Assembly: GCA_018303885.1 (NCBI GenBank)
Contig: JAGVXG010000001.1
Location: 11,746-75,745 of the forward strand
Direction: 5' to 3'
Length of the DNA: 64,000 bases
From: Candidatus Pacearchaeota archaeon
GTDB lineage: Archaea; Nanobdellota; Nanobdellia; Pacearchaeales; GW2011-AR1
Shown here: positions 195-8,454 of the stretch, one piece after another
Numbering within the stretch: position 1 is the first letter of the stretch
Layout: each line of letters begins with the position of its first letter
The notes under the pieces: model-generated
Told to the model about the DNA's origin: nothing
Seen by the model: only the letters and a program-made list of their open reading frames with translations
The model's database searches: none
Made by a program: the position numbers and the translations under genes

Positions 195-359
195 TTACTT
201 TTTCTTAACCTGTTTTAATAGCCAAAGTATTACAAGAACTAAGACTATTACAACTAAAATTTTATAAATTAAACCGAAAATTGCCATTAGCAGATAAAAT
301 GCGAGAATTACCACTAAAATCATCACAATCCACCAAACAATTGACTCGTTTTTCATTTT

Positions 360-584
360 TTACTTCTGAATTTGTCTTGCAAGCCAAACAATGAAGAGAA
401 CTAGAGCAACTAAAATTAAAACTCCATAAAGCCAGCCAAAAAACATCATTCCAGAGCCATAGGTTCCGTACATCATTCCCATCATTCCGCCATATCCACC
501 GAAGCCCATTCCAACCCCGCCAAATATCAAAACTAAAACTGCTACTATGACAATTACCCAAACCATTGTTTCATTGTTTTTCAT
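360..584 (-). CDS. Small Gly/Met/Tyr-rich membrane protein (paralog of 3256..3483)
   Basis: 74 aa; TM helix - GGYGGMMGMMYGTYGSGMM - TM helix, ends ...QIQK; close paralog 2.9 kb away shares MKNN..W.I..VAVL start and QIQK end. Confidence 0.5.
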   Translation of the reverse strand: MKNNETMVWVIVIVAVLVLIFGGVGMGFGGYGGMMGMMYGTYGSGMMFFGWLYGVLILVALVLFIVWLARQIQK

Positions 585-622
585 TATACTCTTAGTCTTT
601 TAGGTTATTTAAATATTCCTGG

Positions 623-826
623 CTATTGATTTTTATTATGTATTCCGAGAACATTGTGGAGCCAGCAATATCCGGTAAAGCTTTCAAGAAGAGCAATTAA
701 GGCAACTACAATGATTACCCAGTTAACCCATACAGTATTTGTTCTCAGAGCCCATGGTCCAAGCCACCAAAAAGCTAATAAAAATCGCAAAACACGATCG
801 GTTTTTCCTAAGTTTTGTTTCACCAT
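623..826 (-). CDS. DUF2892 (YgaP-like) small membrane protein
   Basis: 67 aa; N-terminal N.GKTDRVLRF and C-terminal TGYCWLHNVLGI resemble DUF2892 signature (G.CP.Y..LGI). Confidence 0.45.
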   Translation of the reverse strand: MVKQNLGKTDRVLRFLLAFWWLGPWALRTNTVWVNWVIIVVALIALLESFTGYCWLHNVLGIHNKNQ

Positions 827-881
827 TTACTTCTATGACCTCCTTTCAAATGCGCAAGCGTTTGATTTGAATTTTATTATT

Positions 882-2888
882 TCAAATCTTCTTCCTTCTC
901 AAAAGATTTGCATTTGTCACGACTGTTATTGATGAAAGAGCCATGGCTATCTCTGCAACAATTGGATGAAGCAAACCCGCGACAGCGACAGGAATCGCGA
1001 CTATGTTATATGCGAATGCCCAAAAAAGATTTTGTTTTATTTTTTTGAAAGTTGCCTTGCTTAGATTTATTGCCTGAACAACACCTACAAGAGAGCCACG
1101 CGCCAGAACAATATCTCCTGATTCTATTGCAATATCTGTTCCTGTTCCCATTGCAATTCCAACATTGCTTTGCTTTAGCGCAGGAGCGTCATTAATTCCG
1201 TCGCCGATAAAAGCAACAAATCCTGATTTTTGCAATTCTTCAACTTTTCTTGCTTTGTCTTCTGGAAGAACATTTGCTATGACTTCTGAAATTCCACATT
1301 CTTTTGCTATTGCCTTAGCAGTTTTTTCATTGTCTCCTGTAATCATCATTGTTTTATATCCTTGCTTATTTAATGAGGCAATCGCTAATATAGAATCTTC
1401 TTTAAGAGCATCTGCGACAGCAATAATGCCTATTACTTTTCCTGATTCTGCTACAATCATCGTTGTTTTTCCTTCTGACTCAAAGTCTGAAATTCTAGAC
1501 TCAAAATTCTTAAAAGAAATTTTCTTTTCGTTCATTAGTGTTCTATTACCAATAACAATTTCACTTTTTCCTATTTTTCCTTCGACACCCCTGCCCCTTA
1601 AAATCCTAAAACTTTTGACTTCCTTATATCTTCTTAATTTTGCCTTTTCAACAATTGCTCTTGCAATTAGGTGCTCGCTCAGTTTTTCAAGAGACGCAGC
1701 AATTTCTAGAAGATAATTTTCCTTGACGCTTGATATTATATTTGTGACTTCTGGCTTTCCTTTTGTGATTGTTCCTGTTTTGTCAAAGACAACTATCTTA
1801 ACATGCTTCATTGTCTGCATTGCCTCTCCCTTTCTTATTAGGATTCCATGCTTGGCACCCATTCCAGAGCCGACCATCAAAGCGGTTGGTGTTGCCAAAC
1901 CGAGGGCACAGGGGCATGCAATAACAAGAACAGAAACACTTGCGGCGATTGCTCTACTTAAATCAGAGCTAAAATAAAACCAACCAACGAATGTCAGGAT
2001 TGCAAGAACTAAAATTGATGGAACAAAAATACTAGTGATTTTATCTGCTAAAACCTGGATAGGAACTTTTTCACTCTGCGCTTCTTCAACAAGTTTTATT
2101 ATATGCGCCAGGAATGTGTCTTTTCCGATTTTTGTTGCTTTAATGTAAAGAATTCCGTCTTGGTTTATCGTAGCACCTATCACATTTGAGCCTTTGGTTT
2201 TTTCAACAGGCAGGCTTTCTCCAGTAACCATAGACTCATCAATACTGCTTTCTCCTTTAACAACGATTCCGTCTGTTGGAATTTTTTCACCTGGTTTAAC
2301 AATAAGGACATCGCCAATTTTAATTTCGGAAACGTCAACTTCAAATTCTTTATTGCCCTTTAAAATTCTTGCTTTTTTTGCTCCGAGCTCAAGAAGTTTT
2401 TTAATTTCCTGGCTGGCTCTTCCACGGGCTTTGGCTTCCACATACTTTCCAGTTATGTAAAAAGCCATAATCATTGCAGCAACTCCTGAATAATCCTGGA
2501 TTGAAGAAAACAAACTGAATAAACCAGTTAAATAAGCAACAAGAGTTCCCAGAGCAATAAGAGAATCCATATTAAAATAAAATGTAAACAACCCTCGCAT
2601 TCCTCCCCTAATCGTCGACCATCCAAAGATAAAGAGAACCGGGAAACCTATTGCTAGAATAAGGAAGGTAGTGTACTCCATTGAAAAAAATTGAATTCCA
2701 AAAATCCTTTCTGATAACATAAGAAAGGCAACAGGGACTGCGAAAATCCAAGATCCAGTCATCTTTCTTTTCCATTCATCTATCTCTTCGTCTTCTATTG
2801 GAGCATCGTGGTGATGCTCTAAATCGATCACGCTTGGGCGATTTTCTTTGTCCATTCTCATTTTGTGTTTTTCGTGTTTGTGTTGCAT
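882..2888 (-). CDS. copA: Copper-translocating P1B-type ATPase (CopA), His-rich N-terminus, no fused HMA domain
   Basis: 668 aa; CPC motif [12 protein letters not shown], phosphorylation site FDKTGTIT, hinge [12 protein letters not shown]-like TGESLPV; N-terminal [10 protein letters not shown]...HHH. Confidence 0.9.
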
Positions 2889-3003
2889 TTTTAAATTAGT
2901 TCACTTCGTTCACCTATTAATTTATATTGCTAATATAAAACCCCCTATAATTTACTAAAATATTTTTAGCATTAAAATTTAATCTTAACATCATTAACAT
3001 TTT

Positions 3004-3222
3004 TTATTCAAATTCCACTGTTTTTGCTTCATAACCTGCTCTTTTGACAGCTTTTTTTAATTCATCTTCTGAAACAGAATCTTCACATTCCGCGGTTCCT
3101 TTTTTCAGCAACAAAGACACGTTTGCGTTATTTACACCAGGTGTTTTGCGCAAACTTCTTTCTATGTTTGAAGCGCATGAAGCGCAGTGCATTCCATGAA
3201 TTGTTATTTTTGCTTTTTTCAT
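3004..3222 (-). CDS. copZ: Heavy-metal-associated (HMA) copper chaperone, CopZ-like
   Basis: 72 aa; GMHCASCASNIE (MxCxxC) ferredoxin-like HMA fold. Confidence 0.8.
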   Translation of the reverse strand: MKKAKITIHGMHCASCASNIERSLRKTPGVNNANVSLLLKKGTAECEDSVSEDELKKAVKRAGYEAKTVEFE

Positions 3223-3255
3223 TTTGTTATTTTTTGGTTGGTTAAATTTAGAGGT

Positions 3256-3483
3256 TTATTTTTGAATTTGTTTGACTAGCCAGGCAATGAATAGCACTAA
3301 AGCAATAACAACAAGAGTCATGAAAAGCCAGCCAAAAACCCACATCCCACCCCAATTCATCATATTATTATAGCCCATCATTCCACCATATCCCCCATAT
3401 CCTCCCCAACCCATGGTGAAACCTAAGAAGAGAAGAACGGCAACCGCAATAATAATCCATGTTAAAGCCTGATTATTTTTCAT
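3256..3483 (-). CDS. Small Gly/Met/Tyr-rich membrane protein (paralog of 360..584)
   Basis: 75 aa; TM - GWGGYGGYGGMMGYNNMMNWGGM - TM, ends ...KQIQK; overlaps ArsR stop by 4 nt (operon). Confidence 0.55.
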   Translation of the reverse strand: MKNNQALTWIIIAVAVLLFLGFTMGWGGYGGYGGMMGYNNMMNWGGMWVFGWLFMTLVVIALVLFIAWLVKQIQK

Positions 3484-3860
3484 TTTTCCTTACCCCCTTT
3501 CATATTATGTAATATATGAATACAATAAAGAGACATGTGCTTATCTATCAATTCAATTAATGGCTTTATTGTTTCTTCATTTAGCCAATAATAGCGGAAT
3601 TTGCCATTAACCTCGACATTAACAAATCCACATCTCTTTAACCTAGATAAATCGTGCGAGACAGAAGTTTGGTCCATTTTCAACTCTTTCATAATTTCAG
3701 AAACATTTTTCTTTCCGCTTCTAAGTAAATTAATAATTCTTAACCTTGATTCAGAGACTAACGTTCCAAAAAATATTTTATAGGCGTTATAGACATCAGA
3801 CTCTGCAAGGTGTTCATGATGTTTATGCTCAAAATGCTTTAATATAGATTTGCTTATCAT
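3480..3860 (-). CDS. ArsR/SmtB-family metalloregulatory transcription factor
   Basis: 126 aa; wHTH ...RLRIINLLRSGKKNVSEIMKELKMDQTSVSHDLSRLKRCGFV..., His-rich N-terminus; first gene of cop operon. Confidence 0.8.
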   Translation of the reverse strand: MISKSILKHFEHKHHEHLAESDVYNAYKIFFGTLVSESRLRIINLLRSGKKNVSEIMKELKMDQTSVSHDLSRLKRCGFVNVEVNGKFRYYWLNEETIKPLIELIDKHMSLYCIHILHNMKGGKEK

Positions 3861-3885: not shown

Positions 3886-4341
3886 TTAAATATTTCGCTT
3901 CTTTAAGAAATATAAACTGGTCAGCAAGATAATAACAACTAAAACCTGTATTTCAATTCCCTGAAAAGGCAGAGAAGCAAAGGAAAAACCTATTCCAAGT
4001 AATCCTAGGGCTAAAGGAACAAGCCCTGTAACACACAAAGGGCAAACACCGACAATCAAGCCACCAACACTTCCTGCTCCGGCCAAGACTTTACCCTCTT
4101 TACATTTTTTTCTTTCTTTGTGTAAGATATAAACGTAGACTGCATTCAGGGCAACCAAAAACCCAATAGCTAAAGTTAAAACCAAAGATATTCCTAATCT
4201 AAACCAGTCAACAGTTGAAGCGTATAAAATAATCAAAGGAATTGTGTTATCAAATCCACTGATGAAAATGTTCAGAACTAAATATAAAATAAAAATTGCA
4301 AAAAACCAATATAAATATGGCTCCTTAAAAATTCTTTTCAT
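3886..4341 (-). CDS. Polytopic membrane protein with intramembrane CPLC motif
   Basis: 151 aa, about 4 TM; GVCPLCVTGLVP in TM helix. Confidence 0.45.
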   Translation of the reverse strand: MKRIFKEPYLYWFFAIFILYLVLNIFISGFDNTIPLIILYASTVDWFRLGISLVLTLAIGFLVALNAVYVYILHKERKKCKEGKVLAGAGSVGGLIVGVCPLCVTGLVPLALGLLGIGFSFASLPFQGIEIQVLVVIILLTSLYFLKKRNI

Positions 4342-4343
4342 TT

Positions 4344-4727
4344 TTATTCCACTATGATGGTTCCATAGCCCATTCCCATAGAACAGGCAAATCTAAATGT
4401 TCCTTTTTTTGTGGGGGTAAAATCAATTGTCTCACTTGGGGTTTTCACATACTTTGAAACACCAAGGTCTTTTATTGTGAAACTTCTTAAGCAGCCTGTG
4501 ACAGATTTATCAAGAGTTATACTTACGGGTTTTCCAGATTGCACCTTTATTGTATTCGGATAATAGTTGTAGTCTTTTGTTCCTAATACAACTTTTTGGA
4601 CTTCTCCTTGAACAACATTTTTCGGAATATCTGTATTTTCTTGAGTTGTTCCCCCCTTCAGAAGAAGAAACCCTGCAATCGCTATTAAAATAAAAATGCT
4701 AATCATATAAAAAATATTTTTTGCCAT
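4344..4727 (-). CDS. Cupredoxin-like (Cupredoxin_1 family) secreted copper protein
   Basis: 127 aa; N-terminal signal anchor; ...KVQSGKPVSITL...TGCLRSFTIKDLGV...GTFRFACSMGMGYGTIIVE matches cupredoxin_1 pattern. Confidence 0.6.
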   Translation of the reverse strand: MAKNIFYMISIFILIAIAGFLLLKGGTTQENTDIPKNVVQGEVQKVVLGTKDYNYYPNTIKVQSGKPVSITLDKSVTGCLRSFTIKDLGVSKYVKTPSETIDFTPTKKGTFRFACSMGMGYGTIIVE

Positions 4728-4730
4728 TTT

Positions 4731-5414
4731 TTATTGGAACAACAAGCTCCTTGGTCCAAAAACCATAAACCATGTTGTTACTGCAGTGAGCATGAAACTC
4801 CATGAAATTGTGAAAAATTCATTATCTTTGTGTTTTCTTTCCATTTCTCTTGTTTCAGTATATATCATATAATTCAATCCAAAGAGAATAAATCCTGAAA
4901 TCATGAAAACAACCGCTCCCGCAACCCTTAGATTGTCATTGAGCATCATTATAGCTGTCATTCCACCCATTATTCCACCCATGAAGCCAGCCATCATTCC
5001 TTCCATTGCCCCCATTATTCCACAGCATTTTCCATTCCATACGCCAAATAAAATTCCAAAGGACATTCCGACAACACTTCCCCAAAACATTCCATTAGTA
5101 GAAGCAATAAAAAACCCAGGCAAAAATCCAGAGATCATTCCTATTGTCATTCCTATCATCATTCCAGACATGCATGAAAATTCCTTATAAGCTCTGATAT
5201 GCTTTACAGAAAGCAGAATAAGGGAGTAGCTTAGTACAGCAAAAAACAAGAAAAACCCGTATTTTGGAATAAAGTTCTCGATGTATCTAAGCCTGACAAA
5301 AAAAAGAATTCCTAATAGGATAAACGAGGTGACTAGTGAAACGAAAATGGTTTTAACTAACTCGCCTTCAACTTTGTCGTTATTCAGTGATTTTATGAAA
5401 TCTTTTACAGGCAT
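4731..5414 (-). CDS. Met/Gly-rich polytopic membrane protein
   Basis: 227 aa; repeated GMxxGM motifs (MSGMMIGMTIGMISG...CCGIMGAMEGMMAGFMGGIMGGMTAIMM). Confidence 0.5.
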   Translation of the reverse strand: MPVKDFIKSLNNDKVEGELVKTIFVSLVTSFILLGILFFVRLRYIENFIPKYGFFLFFAVLSYSLILLSVKHIRAYKEFSCMSGMMIGMTIGMISGFLPGFFIASTNGMFWGSVVGMSFGILFGVWNGKCCGIMGAMEGMMAGFMGGIMGGMTAIMMLNDNLRVAGAVVFMISGFILFGLNYMIYTETREMERKHKDNEFFTISWSFMLTAVTTWFMVFGPRSLLFQ

Positions 5415-5561: not shown

Positions 5562-5828
5562 TTAGTTCAATTTGTTGTATATTACAGCAAAAAGCCAGCC
5601 TAAGACAAAGCCTATAACAATAACTTCTACAAATCCTAGAATTGCAGAGCCAATTGTTATGTTACTTGCCTCTATTTGGTTTAAATCAATGCCATGAAAT
5701 ATTGCCCCAAAGAAATTTATTGTAAATTCCTTTGCAATAAGAACAAGCAATAAGCATGTAAGAGAAACAATTCCTGCTACGCTTGCTAAAGCATATCCTG
5801 CTGCTTTTGGTTTTATTTTTTCTGCCAT
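5562..5828 (-). CDS. Hypothetical membrane protein
   Basis: 88 aa, 2-3 TM. Confidence 0.4.
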   Translation of the reverse strand: MAEKIKPKAAGYALASVAGIVSLTCLLLVLIAKEFTINFFGAIFHGIDLNQIEASNITIGSAILGFVEVIVIGFVLGWLFAVIYNKLN

Positions 5829-5861
5829 CTTTCACCCCCTTTTATTTTAATTTAAGTTCAT

Positions 5862-6071
5862 TTAAGTCAAACATTCCCTGTATATATTCGGATGATGACT
5901 CATGTGCTCTCTCCAGGATTCTTCAGTGTAGCCCGGTGCTGGCTTGCACTTTTCACTTGCTATTTTTCCAGAATCTTTCCAAGCCTGAATAACTCCTGGA
6001 AAAAAAGTTAACACTAATAGCCCGATGATTAATAACCCTGCTATTATGTATAATATTATTTTTTTGTCCAT
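5862..6071 (-). CDS. Small membrane-anchored protein
   Basis: 69 aa; N-terminal TM, C-terminal Cys/His residues. Confidence 0.35.
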   Translation of the reverse strand: MDKKIILYIIAGLLIIGLLVLTFFPGVIQAWKDSGKIASEKCKPAPGYTEESWREHMSHHPNIYRECLT

Positions 6072-6536
6072 TTAATGATACGAAACCCCCAAATTTTTCA
6101 TCTTTCTTTTATGTTTAATCATAATAGAGATTCCAATTAAATTAGACAACAATCCAACACCCAGAAACCACTTTTGATATGCTGTTAAAAAAACTGCAAT
6201 CCCAGAAAGCCCAACAATAGGAATAATATTCAGCAAAAAATGGCTGCAGCATGCAATCATGCTTCCCGCAGAAACACCTCCTGTTCCAGCAACTGTTCCA
6301 GTAAGTGCGGCAGTGTGCTTAATAGAAGCATAAAGCCCGATTTGTGTTCCAAACCCTGCTGCAAGAGGGAAAATTAAATACCACAAACTTCTTAGGTTAA
6401 GGAAGGCAAAATCAATTCCTTGAAAAATCGAGACAACTGTTAAGTAAAATAATAAAAGTCCAAGCCCTGCAAGAATTCCATACAATACTGAATTGTTTTT
6501 CACCACTTTTTTATTTTTTACCATTTTTTGCAGCAT
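6072..6536 (-). CDS. Hypothetical membrane protein
   Basis: 154 aa; 4 TM; IACCSHF motif. Confidence 0.45.
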   Translation of the reverse strand: MLQKMVKNKKVVKNNSVLYGILAGLGLLLFYLTVVSIFQGIDFAFLNLRSLWYLIFPLAAGFGTQIGLYASIKHTAALTGTVAGTGGVSAGSMIACCSHFLLNIIPIVGLSGIAVFLTAYQKWFLGVGLLSNLIGISIMIKHKRKMKNLGVSYH

Positions 6537-6985
6537 TCTATAAGTTTAGTTGAAAAAGTTTTGAATTTTTTATTAGTTCTAAATAAATAAATCAATAGGA
6601 AAATTAGCCATAATGCTATTATAAAAATCAAGCTGCTAAGACTAAAACTTTCTAGAATAAAATATATGGCAAAAATAAATGTTAACAATAAAGGCAGTCT
6701 AAAAACTTTGAATTTTTCTTTGGTTTTTTTCTCCCATAGATAAAAAATGCCAAGAGAGGTGTGCCCCATCAATATTGCTATTATGGTTTTATCTATGAAA
6801 ATGTTTAGAAAATAAGATATTAAAAGTAAAACCCATACGAGAGTAATTGAAATGCATATTGCACAAAACTTTTTTAGATTAAAGATATTTTTCAGTACTA
6901 ATAGTATAAAAAACAGTATAACAATTCCTATTAATACTGTTGTTATTGTATCCATTAGATTATTTTCCTCCCGGATTCTTCCCAC
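6518..6985 (-). CDS. Hypothetical membrane protein
   Basis: 155 aa; polytopic; overlaps neighbours at both ends (operon). Confidence 0.4.
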   Translation of the reverse strand: MGRIREENNLMDTITTVLIGIVILFFILLVLKNIFNLKKFCAICISITLVWVLLLISYFLNIFIDKTIIAILMGHTSLGIFYLWEKKTKEKFKVFRLPLLLTFIFAIYFILESFSLSSLIFIIALWLIFLLIYLFRTNKKFKTFSTKLIECCKKW

Positions 6986-7863
6986 GCATTCATTCCACCG
7001 TCTAAGTCATAAATCTTTTGATAACCCATTTCCTTAAGATCTTCGGCTACGGCTTCTGACATGCGCCCGCTTCTGCAATAGACAGCTATGGGAATAGAAG
7101 TATCCTTAGGTAATTTGTCCATATACTTTTCAATGTTTTCCCAATCTTCAATTATTTCATCAGTTCCATCAATTTGACCCTGATAAGGAGTATGAACATT
7201 TAGTAAAAAAACACCTTCGTTCTGAATGACTTTCTCAAATTCGCTCGGAGATAAACGCTCAATCGATCCTGTTACAACACCACTTCCCAAATTTGTCAAA
7301 CTAAGTTGTATAATTCCTCCAGCTATTATTAATAATAAGAGTGTTAATATAACTCCTTGAAAAGGAATTAGTTTTCCTTTTCTTAATTTAGTGAGGGTTT
7401 TGCTTAATTTTGGAGACGAAAGTACCAAAATTCCTCCTAAAGCACTTGATACCAAAGAGTAATTAACTGCATATGTTTTTCCGTATTCTCCGATGAAAGA
7501 GAGGTATAGTGGCCCTATAGCTTTGAATAGTGGAATCAAAGGGATTACTGTAGTCAAAAATATTAGTAAAATAATTATAGTTTTCTGAAATGGTATGTAT
7601 CTTTTTTTAGGGATTTTTGAAAACCACATTCCCATTGACATTGCAAAAGCTCCAATAAACAAAGCAACTACTACCTTACTTACGCCAAGCCAGATTGCAC
7701 CAACTCCGGCTGCTCCAGCCCCGATTGTACATAGAGGGCAGTGTGCAGAAACTTGTTTTACTAAGAAAATTGCTAAAACTGTTAAAACAGGAAAGATGAA
7801 AATTTTTTTTTGCATTTTATCTGATGAAACTAAATACCAATAAAATAACGAGGAGAATAACAA
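6955..7863 (-). CDS. Membrane protein with CPLC motif and C-terminal rhodanese (sulfurtransferase) domain
   Basis: 302 aa; SAHCPLCTIGAGAAG in TM1; C-terminal ...VYCRSGRMSEAVAEDLKEMGYQKIYDLDGGMNAWEESG rhodanese active-site loop. Confidence 0.7.
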   Translation of the reverse strand: MLFSSLFYWYLVSSDKMQKKIFIFPVLTVLAIFLVKQVSAHCPLCTIGAGAAGVGAIWLGVSKVVVALFIGAFAMSMGMWFSKIPKKRYIPFQKTIIILLIFLTTVIPLIPLFKAIGPLYLSFIGEYGKTYAVNYSLVSSALGGILVLSSPKLSKTLTKLRKGKLIPFQGVILTLLLLIIAGGIIQLSLTNLGSGVVTGSIERLSPSEFEKVIQNEGVFLLNVHTPYQGQIDGTDEIIEDWENIEKYMDKLPKDTSIPIAVYCRSGRMSEAVAEDLKEMGYQKIYDLDGGMNAWEESGRKII

Positions 7864-7974
7864 TGATCCACATTAACCATGAACTTTTCTTCTCTGAGTT
7901 ATTTTGGTTATGACTCTCGTTACTGTTTTGCTTTCCATGCGAATGACTCGAATGATTTCCGCAGCAGCTCATTT

Positions 7975-8454
7975 TTATATCCTTATAAATTCGCTGTAGC
8001 TTCCGTCATAGTTTACAGCGTAAATTACGAAGGCGCCTTGCTTTTGACCAGGCATTCCCGGGCTTCCCGAAGGCATTCCAGGCATTGCAATTCCTGCTAT
8101 ATCTGGCTGTTCTTTAAGAAGTTTTTCAACAGCTTCTAAAGGAACATGCCCTTCAATGAAATAATCTCCAACAATTGTAGTATGACAGCTTTGGAGTGCA
8201 ATAGGAACGCCATATTGCTTCTTTATTTTGTCAGAGTTCTGAATGTCGATAATGTTTACTTTAGTGGAAACTTTTCCATCGACGTAACTTGAATAAACAT
8301 CACAGCATCCGCAAGTTAAAGATTTGTATATGTCTACTTTCTCGGCGTTGTTAATATTTTCAAAAGAAGCCGCGCCAGAACCCTTTGAAAATAAGAGGAC
8401 TGCTGCTAAGAAAATAAATACTATTACTATTCCGAACAATAAACTTTTTTTCAT
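7975..8454 (-). CDS. DUF411 / CopG-like copper-binding protein
   Basis: 159 aa; signal anchor; CxCC motif (TCGCCD), QSCHTTIVGDYFIEGHVP, Met-rich GIAMPGMPSGSPGMPG. Confidence 0.75.
   Translation of the reverse strand: MKKSLLFGIVIVFIFLAAVLLFSKGSGAASFENINNAEKVDIYKSLTCGCCDVYSSYVDGKVSTKVNIIDIQNSDKIKKQYGVPIALQSCHTTIVGDYFIEGHVPLEAVEKLLKEQPDIAGIAMPGMPSGSPGMPGQKQGAFVIYAVNYDGSYSEFIRI

Follow-up and report, generated by a model that had tools for sequence, protein, structure and literature searches.

A small Gly/Met-rich membrane protein family linked to the CopA copper-efflux cluster of DPANN archaea

How a cell with a single membrane handles the Cu(I) that its exporter has just released is a question raised by a copper cluster of a Candidatus Pacearchaeota archaeon. 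To our knowledge, the fate of Cu(I) after release by a P1B ATPase is understood only in Gram-negative bacteria, in which CusF or CueO receives it, but not in archaea or other cells with a single membrane. The DNA analyzed here, referred to as the window, is a stretch of 64,000 nucleotides from contig JAGVXG010000001.1 (assembly GCA_018303885.1, positions 11,746 to 75,745 of the forward strand). It contains a multi-gene copper island, retained despite the size of DPANN genomes of only ~1 Mb, in which the gene for the Cu(I)/Ag(I) ATPase CopA is flanked by the genes for two small membrane peptides rich in Gly, Met and Tyr, i.e., peptide A (74 amino acids, 584..360) and peptide B (75 amino acids, 3483..3256). 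An earlier interpretation, made without database searches (the sequence-only reading), had proposed that these are paralogous peptides with a role in copper handling. What these peptides are, and whether they belong to copper efflux, is addressed in the following; the finding is real, conserved and tied to copper efflux more firmly than a reading of a single sequence could show.

Both open reading frames (ORFs) exist where the sequence-only reading had placed them, and they are encoded on the minus strand, which had been left unstated. Their paralogy within the copper operon was borne out, as peptides A and B are 52% identical over their full length (E 7e-16, BLASTP with compositional adjustment). 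Peptide B starts with MKNN, which is followed by helix 1, the Gly/Met/Tyr segment GGYGGYGGMMGYNNMMNWGGM and the conserved helix 2 FGWLFMTLVVIALVLFIAWLVKQIQK; helix 2 of peptide A carries a GxxxG motif (FGWLYG). The shared motif that had been proposed for the two copies needs correction at two sites, since the copies differ at position 6 (T or A) and end in A-R-Q-I-Q-K and V-K-Q-I-Q-K instead of [LI]-Q-I-Q-K. Moreover, a third, loop-less paralog had been overlooked. It is encoded by an ORF of 53 amino acids (356..195, minus strand) that follows peptide A after a 3-nt gap and that retains the two helices as well as the basic tail but lacks the Gly/Met segment. Its hhalign alignment to the family profile spans the two helices (probability 97.9%, E 6.5e-13), and the island of the window holds three copies of the scaffold. 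Orthologs of peptide A occur in the same position in the loci L002-L008, L043 and L047, and orthologs 91% identical to the 53-amino acid paralog are encoded behind the A-type peptide in L005-L008. Ratios of nonsynonymous to synonymous substitution rates (dN/dS) against the orthologs in metagenome locus L005 amount to 0.28 for peptide B, 0.07 for peptide A and 0.10 for the 53-amino acid paralog, i.e., all three ORFs are under purifying selection. The protein identical to peptide B in the searched databases (P0001) is labelled 'Candidatus Pacearchaeota archaeon'.

The homology search that the sequence-only reading had called for revealed conservation of the peptides far outside this genome. With peptide B as query, a word-indexed search retrieved 46 proteins of 64-91 amino acids. 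A profile search of 1.84 billion cluster representatives yielded 571 clusters (50% identity) at E <=1e-3, 210 of these at E <=1e-10, nearly all with a length of 55-128 amino acids. A second profile search (90% clusters), which scored 8000 candidates and therefore gives a lower bound, found at least 601 family proteins. The 120 homologs listed from this second search contain no Pfam domain and are named only 'hypothetical' or 'uncharacterized membrane protein'. It had been stated before that the family could not be named, and this holds: for the three paralogs no significant match was found in Pfam and NCBIfam, with best E-values of 0.3-0.75 and nothing at E <0.3, matches to Hok and holin at E 0.07-0.5 aside. 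A reading as sorting signal, holin or toxin was rejected, as these Hok and holin matches were the only ones of such kind. A PDB sequence search with the family profile returned chance transmembrane matches only, and a tblastn search of 72,556 plasmids gave no match. When one genome per GTDB species was scanned, 47 loci were found, which derive from Pacearchaeota, Woesearchaeota, Nanoarchaeota/Nanoarchaeia or bins labelled plainly 'archaeon', plus one bin labelled Methanosarcinales; as the scan was made with two exact peptide patterns, other lineages may contain distant relatives. A description of the family was not found in the literature on SHOCT and copper, DPANN CopA, methionine-rich small membrane proteins and COG3462. 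The peptides constitute a family of small membrane proteins that has not been described before; apart from the one bin labelled Methanosarcinales, it was seen here only in bins of DPANN or unclassified archaea, and its restriction to DPANN is an apparent one. The 571 clusters of 'hypothetical' small proteins become annotatable as components of cop clusters.

The linkage to CopA was analyzed in both directions. In the forward direction, the proteins of the window were compared by tblastn with the 47 species-representative loci. A P1B-1 CopA is encoded on the same strand in 35 of these loci, 29 times downstream and six times upstream of the peptide, with a median gap of 651 bp, and seven of the 12 CopA-negative loci hit the contig end less than 700 bp past the peptide. 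In 21 of the 47 loci the peptide is preceded, at a distance of less than 300 bp, by the gene for an ArsR-family regulator, and the recurrent gene order is 227-amino acid protein, cupredoxin, CPLC protein, ArsR, peptide, CopZ and CopA. In the reverse direction, a metagenome scan was seeded by CopA alone. CopA enzymes at least 60% identical to that of the window, encoded mostly at a G+C content of 0.28-0.37, are accompanied by a family peptide in 27 of 48 loci, and among the 27 informative loci, in which the upstream sequence extends over at least 1.5 kb, the peptide is found in 21. In contrast, no family peptide was detected in the 32 loci with a CopA of less than 60% identity, which are mostly of higher G+C content and presumably belong to other lineages; the family profile is silent in these unrelated cop loci. 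The association with P1B ATPases, which the sequence-only reading had drawn from one operon and recommended for a check across genomes, is therefore seen from both sides. The family is co-located and co-oriented with a P1B-1 copper ATPase across species, which is the operational definition of a component of the cop operon, and from the numbers of the reverse scan (21 of 27 vs none of 32 loci) the peptide is a frequent, lineage-specific and non-obligatory companion of one CopA clade.

On which side of the membrane the Gly/Met/Tyr segment is located is indicated by variants within the family. In 45 of the 191 family sequences examined for this feature, i.e., about a quarter, a signal peptide takes the place of helix 1. 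Around and after the cleavage site these variants carry the motifs A-x-A|H-x-G-E-D-D-[YF]-x-H-H-x-M-M, Q-T-Y-D-C-P-M or D-V-G-D...G-C-G-M, which precede the same Met-rich stretch and helix 2, and their genes occupy the same slot in the order ArsR, peptide, HMA protein and CopA. Net charge averages +3.3 in the C-terminal tail and -0.6 in the Lys-free loop. Signal-peptide variants and charge distribution together suggest that the Met-rich segment faces the outside of the cell. As the variants place the segment outside and add the classical metal ligands His, Asp, Cys and Met, they lend independent support to a role in copper binding; the histidine-brace sites of CopC and YcnI likewise use a His that becomes N-terminal when the signal peptide is removed. 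A homology search seeded with a signal-peptide member (E <=10), which looked for the His motif on other domain types, returned family members only.

For peptide B, AlphaFold2 (145 homologs) predicted a helix of residues 4-26, a low-confidence coil of residues 27-44 and a high-confidence helix of residues 45-74, with a mean pLDDT (predicted local distance difference test) of 72 and loop values of ~51-65 in ten-residue blocks. The former designation as two-helix peptides is nevertheless uncertain: helix 1 shows little conservation, and in other members the region aligned with it is a cleavable signal peptide. For these two reasons helix 1 is possibly cleaved in the 'hairpin' members as well, and the mature protein may then be a single-pass protein of ~50 residues.

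The same anchor also occurs in longer relatives of 150-190 amino acids, which are often encoded directly after the small peptide. They consist of a signal peptide and a domain of ~90 residues with invariant Cys, His, Met and Glu (motif …QKISC..LTD.QLEILGDYYMEQMHPGELHEIMDERMGGEGS…H…YCGEH), followed by MMN.MM and the same anchor helix. Their genes are located at L015 2936-3424, L022 7011-7484, L035 3083-3565, L039 3585-4073, L041 8225-8791, L048 8193-8768, L051 7563-8096 and L052 6747-7190; none of these relatives is encoded in the window. Scans of the longer relatives against Pfam and NCBIfam gave no significant match, and a PDB search with the profile of the long relatives gave chance transmembrane matches only.

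The occurrence of one C-terminal module on three different N-terminal parts, together with a helix 1 that behaves as a signal peptide, would also be expected if the module were a generic C-terminal anchor or sorting module in the manner of PGF-CTERM, or a low-complexity linker, without any role in metal binding, the synteny then reflecting a lineage-specific envelope gene that resides in the island. This is regarded as the least probable of the explanations considered. Even with E up to 1, none of the CTERM sorting models in NCBIfam was matched, and conservation extends over the whole helix and the cytoplasmic K-Q-I-Q, i.e., beyond a short signature. In the copies of the window the Met-rich segment would be the sole cargo of such an anchor, and each of the attached N-terminal parts is rich in metal ligands. 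Furthermore, the linkage to CopA is strong in both directions and comes with a clean negative control.

The middle segment averages 28 residues and is composed of 32% Gly, 18% Met, 9% Phe, 9% Tyr and 8% Ser with no Lys, and it contains about five Met residues. An adjacent MM pair is present in 278 of 282 loops, compared to 157 +/- 7 after shuffling of each loop; the MM count is 544 with 222 expected, and that of G-M-M is 440 with 79 expected. G34 is conserved at 81%, M35 at 92% and M36 at 96%. Helix 2 is the second conserved element, with a mean column entropy of 1.27 bits vs 2.29 bits for helix 1. Its residues F50, L57, L62, L64, I66, W68, L69 and Q72 are near-invariant, G51, W52, A61 and K71 are conserved at 81-87%, and the consensus reads F-G-W...A-L-V-L-F-I-x-W-L-x-K-Q-I-Q, followed by the basic tail. 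F50, L57, A61, L64, W68 and Q72 form a stripe on one helical face, suggesting specific helix-helix packing.

No other part of the family comes close to helix 2 and the juxtamembrane K-Q-I-Q in conservation, and the stripe is one-sided, which raises the possibility that the peptide serves the pump as a subunit with a regulatory or stabilising role, with helix 2 packing on the transmembrane helices of CopA and tuning or stabilising the ATPase in the manner of KdpF, MgtR/MgtS, sarcolipin/phospholamban and FXYD proteins in other P-type ATPases, while the Met segment would be secondary. The loop-less paralog, which keeps the helices and is under purifying selection, the position of the peptide genes directly beside CopA on either side and the confinement of the family to one CopA clade all agree with such a subunit, and should the peptide bind the pump, a small subunit would have been found for the first time in a heavy-metal ATPase. 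It is nevertheless considered rather unlikely: we know of no small subunit described for any P1B ATPase, about one fifth of the informative loci of the CopA clade have no peptide and some peptides have no CopA nearby, and the near-invariant G-M-M as well as the His/Cys variants indicate that selection acts on the outside segment, too. A subunit of this type is compatible with a copper-binding accessory, and both could hold.

With moderate confidence, the family is interpreted as an accessory of the CopA cluster that is anchored in the membrane, faces the outside and binds Cu(I)/Ag(I). This interpretation is favoured because the pump has the Cu(I)/Ag(I) P1B-1 motifs and is encoded together with CopZ, a cupredoxin, a DUF411 protein and a rhodanese, and the His/Cys-bearing variants, the ligand-rich longer relatives and the MM pair in nearly all loops support the presence of metal ligands. 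The highly conserved C-terminal helix would anchor each protein in the membrane with the basic tail in the cytoplasm, and the flexible segment of ~28 residues would be displayed on the outer face of the membrane. There, its Met and aromatic residues may bind Cu(I) or Ag(I) at the membrane surface, taking up metal released by CopA or buffering metal that arrives from outside, and the conserved helix may pack against CopA or against paralogs. If copper binding is true, this would represent a new metal-binding module, very small and anchored in the membrane, that is based on G-M-M instead of MxM, and extracytoplasmic copper handling in archaea would become testable. A more far-reaching version, which is more doubtful than the pump subunit, is that the peptide is the first dedicated small-protein partner of a P1B ATPase: the helix would dock on CopA and the outside G-M-M would receive Cu(I) from the exit site, as a membrane-built equivalent of the hand-off from CopA to CusF in single-membrane cells, and the loop-less paralog and the longer relatives could form a hetero-oligomeric relay on the same anchor.

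Several observations weigh against the accessory role. The sequence-only reading had regarded the loop as a 'classic' Cu(I) motif, and in this it failed: MxM is depleted, with 73 observed and 213 +/- 12 expected, and MxxM is at expectation with 203 observed and 205 expected, so that the enrichment of MxM or MxxM by which the classical 'Mets motif' of Ctr1, CusF and CopC is recognized is not found; it is G-M-M that is conserved. The loops of peptides A and B contain neither His nor Cys; both peptides are devoid of Cys altogether, and across the family Cys accounts for 0.6% of loop residues and is unconserved in the helices. The high content of Gly and aromatic residues could also be that of a merely flexible linker. 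As the loop-less paralog keeps the scaffold, the conserved function possibly resides in the membrane helices and not in the loop. Finally, the partnership with CopA is not obligatory: five peptide loci are without CopA despite at least 2 kb of downstream sequence, and six of the 27 informative loci of the DPANN CopA clade are without the peptide. The five CopA-less loci keep neighbours related to thiols or metals, among them ArsR, DsbA-like, rhodanese, NifU/Suf and CPLC-type proteins.

In function the family would belong to a kind already known, the Met-rich accessories that cop operons provide outside the cytoplasm; new are the family itself, the G-M-M motif, the conserved anchor helix, the modular variants and the apparent restriction to DPANN. 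The closest functional analogues would be the Met-rich periplasmic copper binders and CopL, and by architecture the small single-span partners of P-type ATPases. Met-rich extracytoplasmic binders of Cu(I)/Ag(I) include CusF, PcoE/SilE, CopM, the Met-rich insert of CueO, in which MMG runs occur, and the Cu(I) site of CopC/PcoC. Like these, the family has a Met-rich, aromatic, flexible or disordered segment that would lie outside the cytoplasm, and it is encoded together with copper-resistance genes. In contrast, it shows no sequence or profile similarity to them, it is predicted to be membrane-anchored while these are soluble, it uses a G-M-M unit with MxM depleted, it is archaeal (DPANN), and it comprises 70-90 amino acids including the anchor. 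CopL (DUF1541) from Staphylococcus aureus and Bacillus is a lipoprotein that binds Cu(I) at the cell surface while tethered to the membrane, and its gene accompanies that of a P1B ATPase. The resemblance lies in a single-membrane organism, a predicted membrane-tethered copper binder on the outer face and an exporter operon; there is no homology, and a helix anchor with a low-complexity Met/Gly segment stands against a lipoprotein with a folded DUF1541 domain. KdpF, MgtR/MgtS, sarcolipin, phospholamban and FXYD are small partners of other P-type ATPases. The family resembles them in its small size, in a transmembrane helix that is its most conserved part, in an aromatic motif at the outer boundary, in a basic cytoplasmic tail and in the position of the gene beside the pump, and the FXYD family, too, has signal-peptide and non-cleaved forms. 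However, there is no homology, none of these partners has a Met-rich ectodomain, and none is known for P1B pumps.

The mercury transporters MerT, MerF and MerE, which possess two to three helices and roughly 80-116 amino acids, offer a further comparison. The slot of the peptide gene between those of a regulator and an HMA protein mirrors merR-merT-merP, and size and two helices are as in MerF and MerE. In a further explanation, the peptide would be a small copper-uptake or relay permease comparable to MerT/MerF/MerE or to Ctr1 with its ectodomain and pore, whose oligomer would capture Cu(I) outside and pass it to CopZ or to the ArsR sensor. In the variants an outside His cluster and then a Met cluster directly precede the transmembrane helix, as in Ctr1, and the GxxxG motif of A-type copies could drive oligomerisation. 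On the other hand, apart from a variable Met at position 55, no Met, Cys or His suited to lining a pore is conserved in the membrane part of helix 2, and the Cys pairs in or next to the first transmembrane helix that define the Mer transporters are missing, the ligands being Met and aromatic residues outside the membrane. In addition, the cluster exports and does not reduce the metal; it encodes no cytoplasmic detoxifying enzyme, and import would be without evident benefit. A permease is accordingly judged very unlikely.

For COG3462-type membrane proteins with a C-terminal SHOCT domain, a location beside archaeal copper islands (PMC5498576) and induction by silver in Haloferax (PMC10694973) have been reported. 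They resemble the family in a short Gly/Met/His-rich N-terminus followed by one transmembrane helix and in a gene beside copA. One such protein was observed in L140 (1722-2063), directly after a CopA 58% identical to that of the window; it is a transmembrane protein with the N-terminal stretch MMHYGIGHFGGG and a SHOCT-like C-terminus, the SHOCT match (E 2.2e-4) being below the Pfam gathering score. Its alignment with the family profile covers 18 transmembrane residues (probability 81.6%, hhalign). The SHOCT domain (PF09851) was not found in the Pfam scan of the paralogs or in the peptide loci covered by a regular-expression scan, and family proteins end 6-20 residues past helix 2. The resemblance to SHOCT proteins is treated as an analogy and not as evidence of homology, as the domain is missing and the similarity is confined to the 18 transmembrane residues; the L140 protein would be an analogous small partner in another lineage.

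The genes of the copper region in the window are all located on the minus strand in one tight cluster. The first gene (5414..4731) encodes a Met/Gly/Cys-rich multi-pass membrane protein of 227 amino acids without Pfam or NCBIfam family. It contains the stretches CMSGMMIGMTIGM and CCGIMGAMEGMMAGFMGGIMGGM, immediately precedes the cupredoxin gene in most related loci (58-87% identity in the majority) and looks like another uncharacterised Met/Cys-rich component of the copper island. After 3 nt a membrane-anchored cupredoxin of 127 amino acids follows (4727..4344; Cupredoxin_1, E 7.5e-14), and after a further 2 nt a membrane protein of 151 amino acids with a CPLC motif (G-V-C-P-L-C-V-T-G; 4341..3886), for which no Pfam family was found. 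This order upstream of ArsR and the peptide is kept in most loci, and the CPLC protein is kept between the cupredoxin and ArsR genes in many of them; a related second type with the motif 'PGC[IVA]ACG' occurs in L001, L002 and L049.

The ArsR-family regulator (3860..3480; HTH_5, E 2.6e-14) is encoded 25 nt downstream of the CPLC gene. In accordance with the sequence-only reading, the gene of peptide B overlaps the ArsR stop codon, its ATG at 3483-3481 and the TGA at 3482-3480 being read as ATGA, and it directly precedes the genes for CopZ and then CopA; the ArsR gene and peptide B are probably translationally coupled. The CopZ-type HMA copper chaperone (GMHCASC; 3222..3004; HMA, E 7e-14), which has no signal peptide, starts 33 nt after peptide B, with no extra small ORF in between. 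In other loci, such extra small ORFs of 59-112 amino acids are found between peptide and CopZ (L009 3745-4259, L059 5249-5443, L060 5237-5437 and L015 4731-4931), one of them with a Cys-rich end (…GGCCG). CopA (2888..882) follows CopZ after 115 nt and matches E1-E2_ATPase (E 2.4e-58) and Hydrolase (E 1.5e-36) in Pfam. Its translation contains CPC, YN, MALSS and DKTGT, and its N-terminus is His-rich and has no HMA domain. The set of CPC, YN and MxxSS marks a P1B-1 Cu(I)/Ag(I) exporter in the established classification of P1B ATPases. After 55 nt a YgaP-like transmembrane protein (DUF2892) of 67 amino acids is encoded (826..623; PF11127 YgaP-like_TM, E 5.5e-13), whose gene is in the same position in L002-L004, L043 and L047. 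Peptide A comes 38 nt after it, beyond copA and the DUF2892 gene as had been described. A scan for sigma-70 promoters and terminators gave results at shuffle expectation, and the sigma-70 model is in any case inapplicable to an archaeon.

Upstream of these genes, the metal/thiol island extends on the minus strand over 5562-8454 with a DUF5676 two-helix protein (5562-5828), a Cys/His protein of 69 amino acids that is kept in several loci (5862-6071), a weakly VKOR-like protein (6518-6985), a rhodanese-domain protein (6955-7863) and a DUF411 protein (7975-8454). At its other side, the copper cluster ends head-on against a plus-strand gene (24-194) that stops at position 194. This convergent neighbour is, in the window and in L002-L008, a suf cluster for iron-sulfur (Fe-S) assembly, an arrangement common to several related genomes, and the cluster contains a SufC-like ABC ATPase, SufB/D (with inteins in L002), a cysteine desulfurase and NifU.

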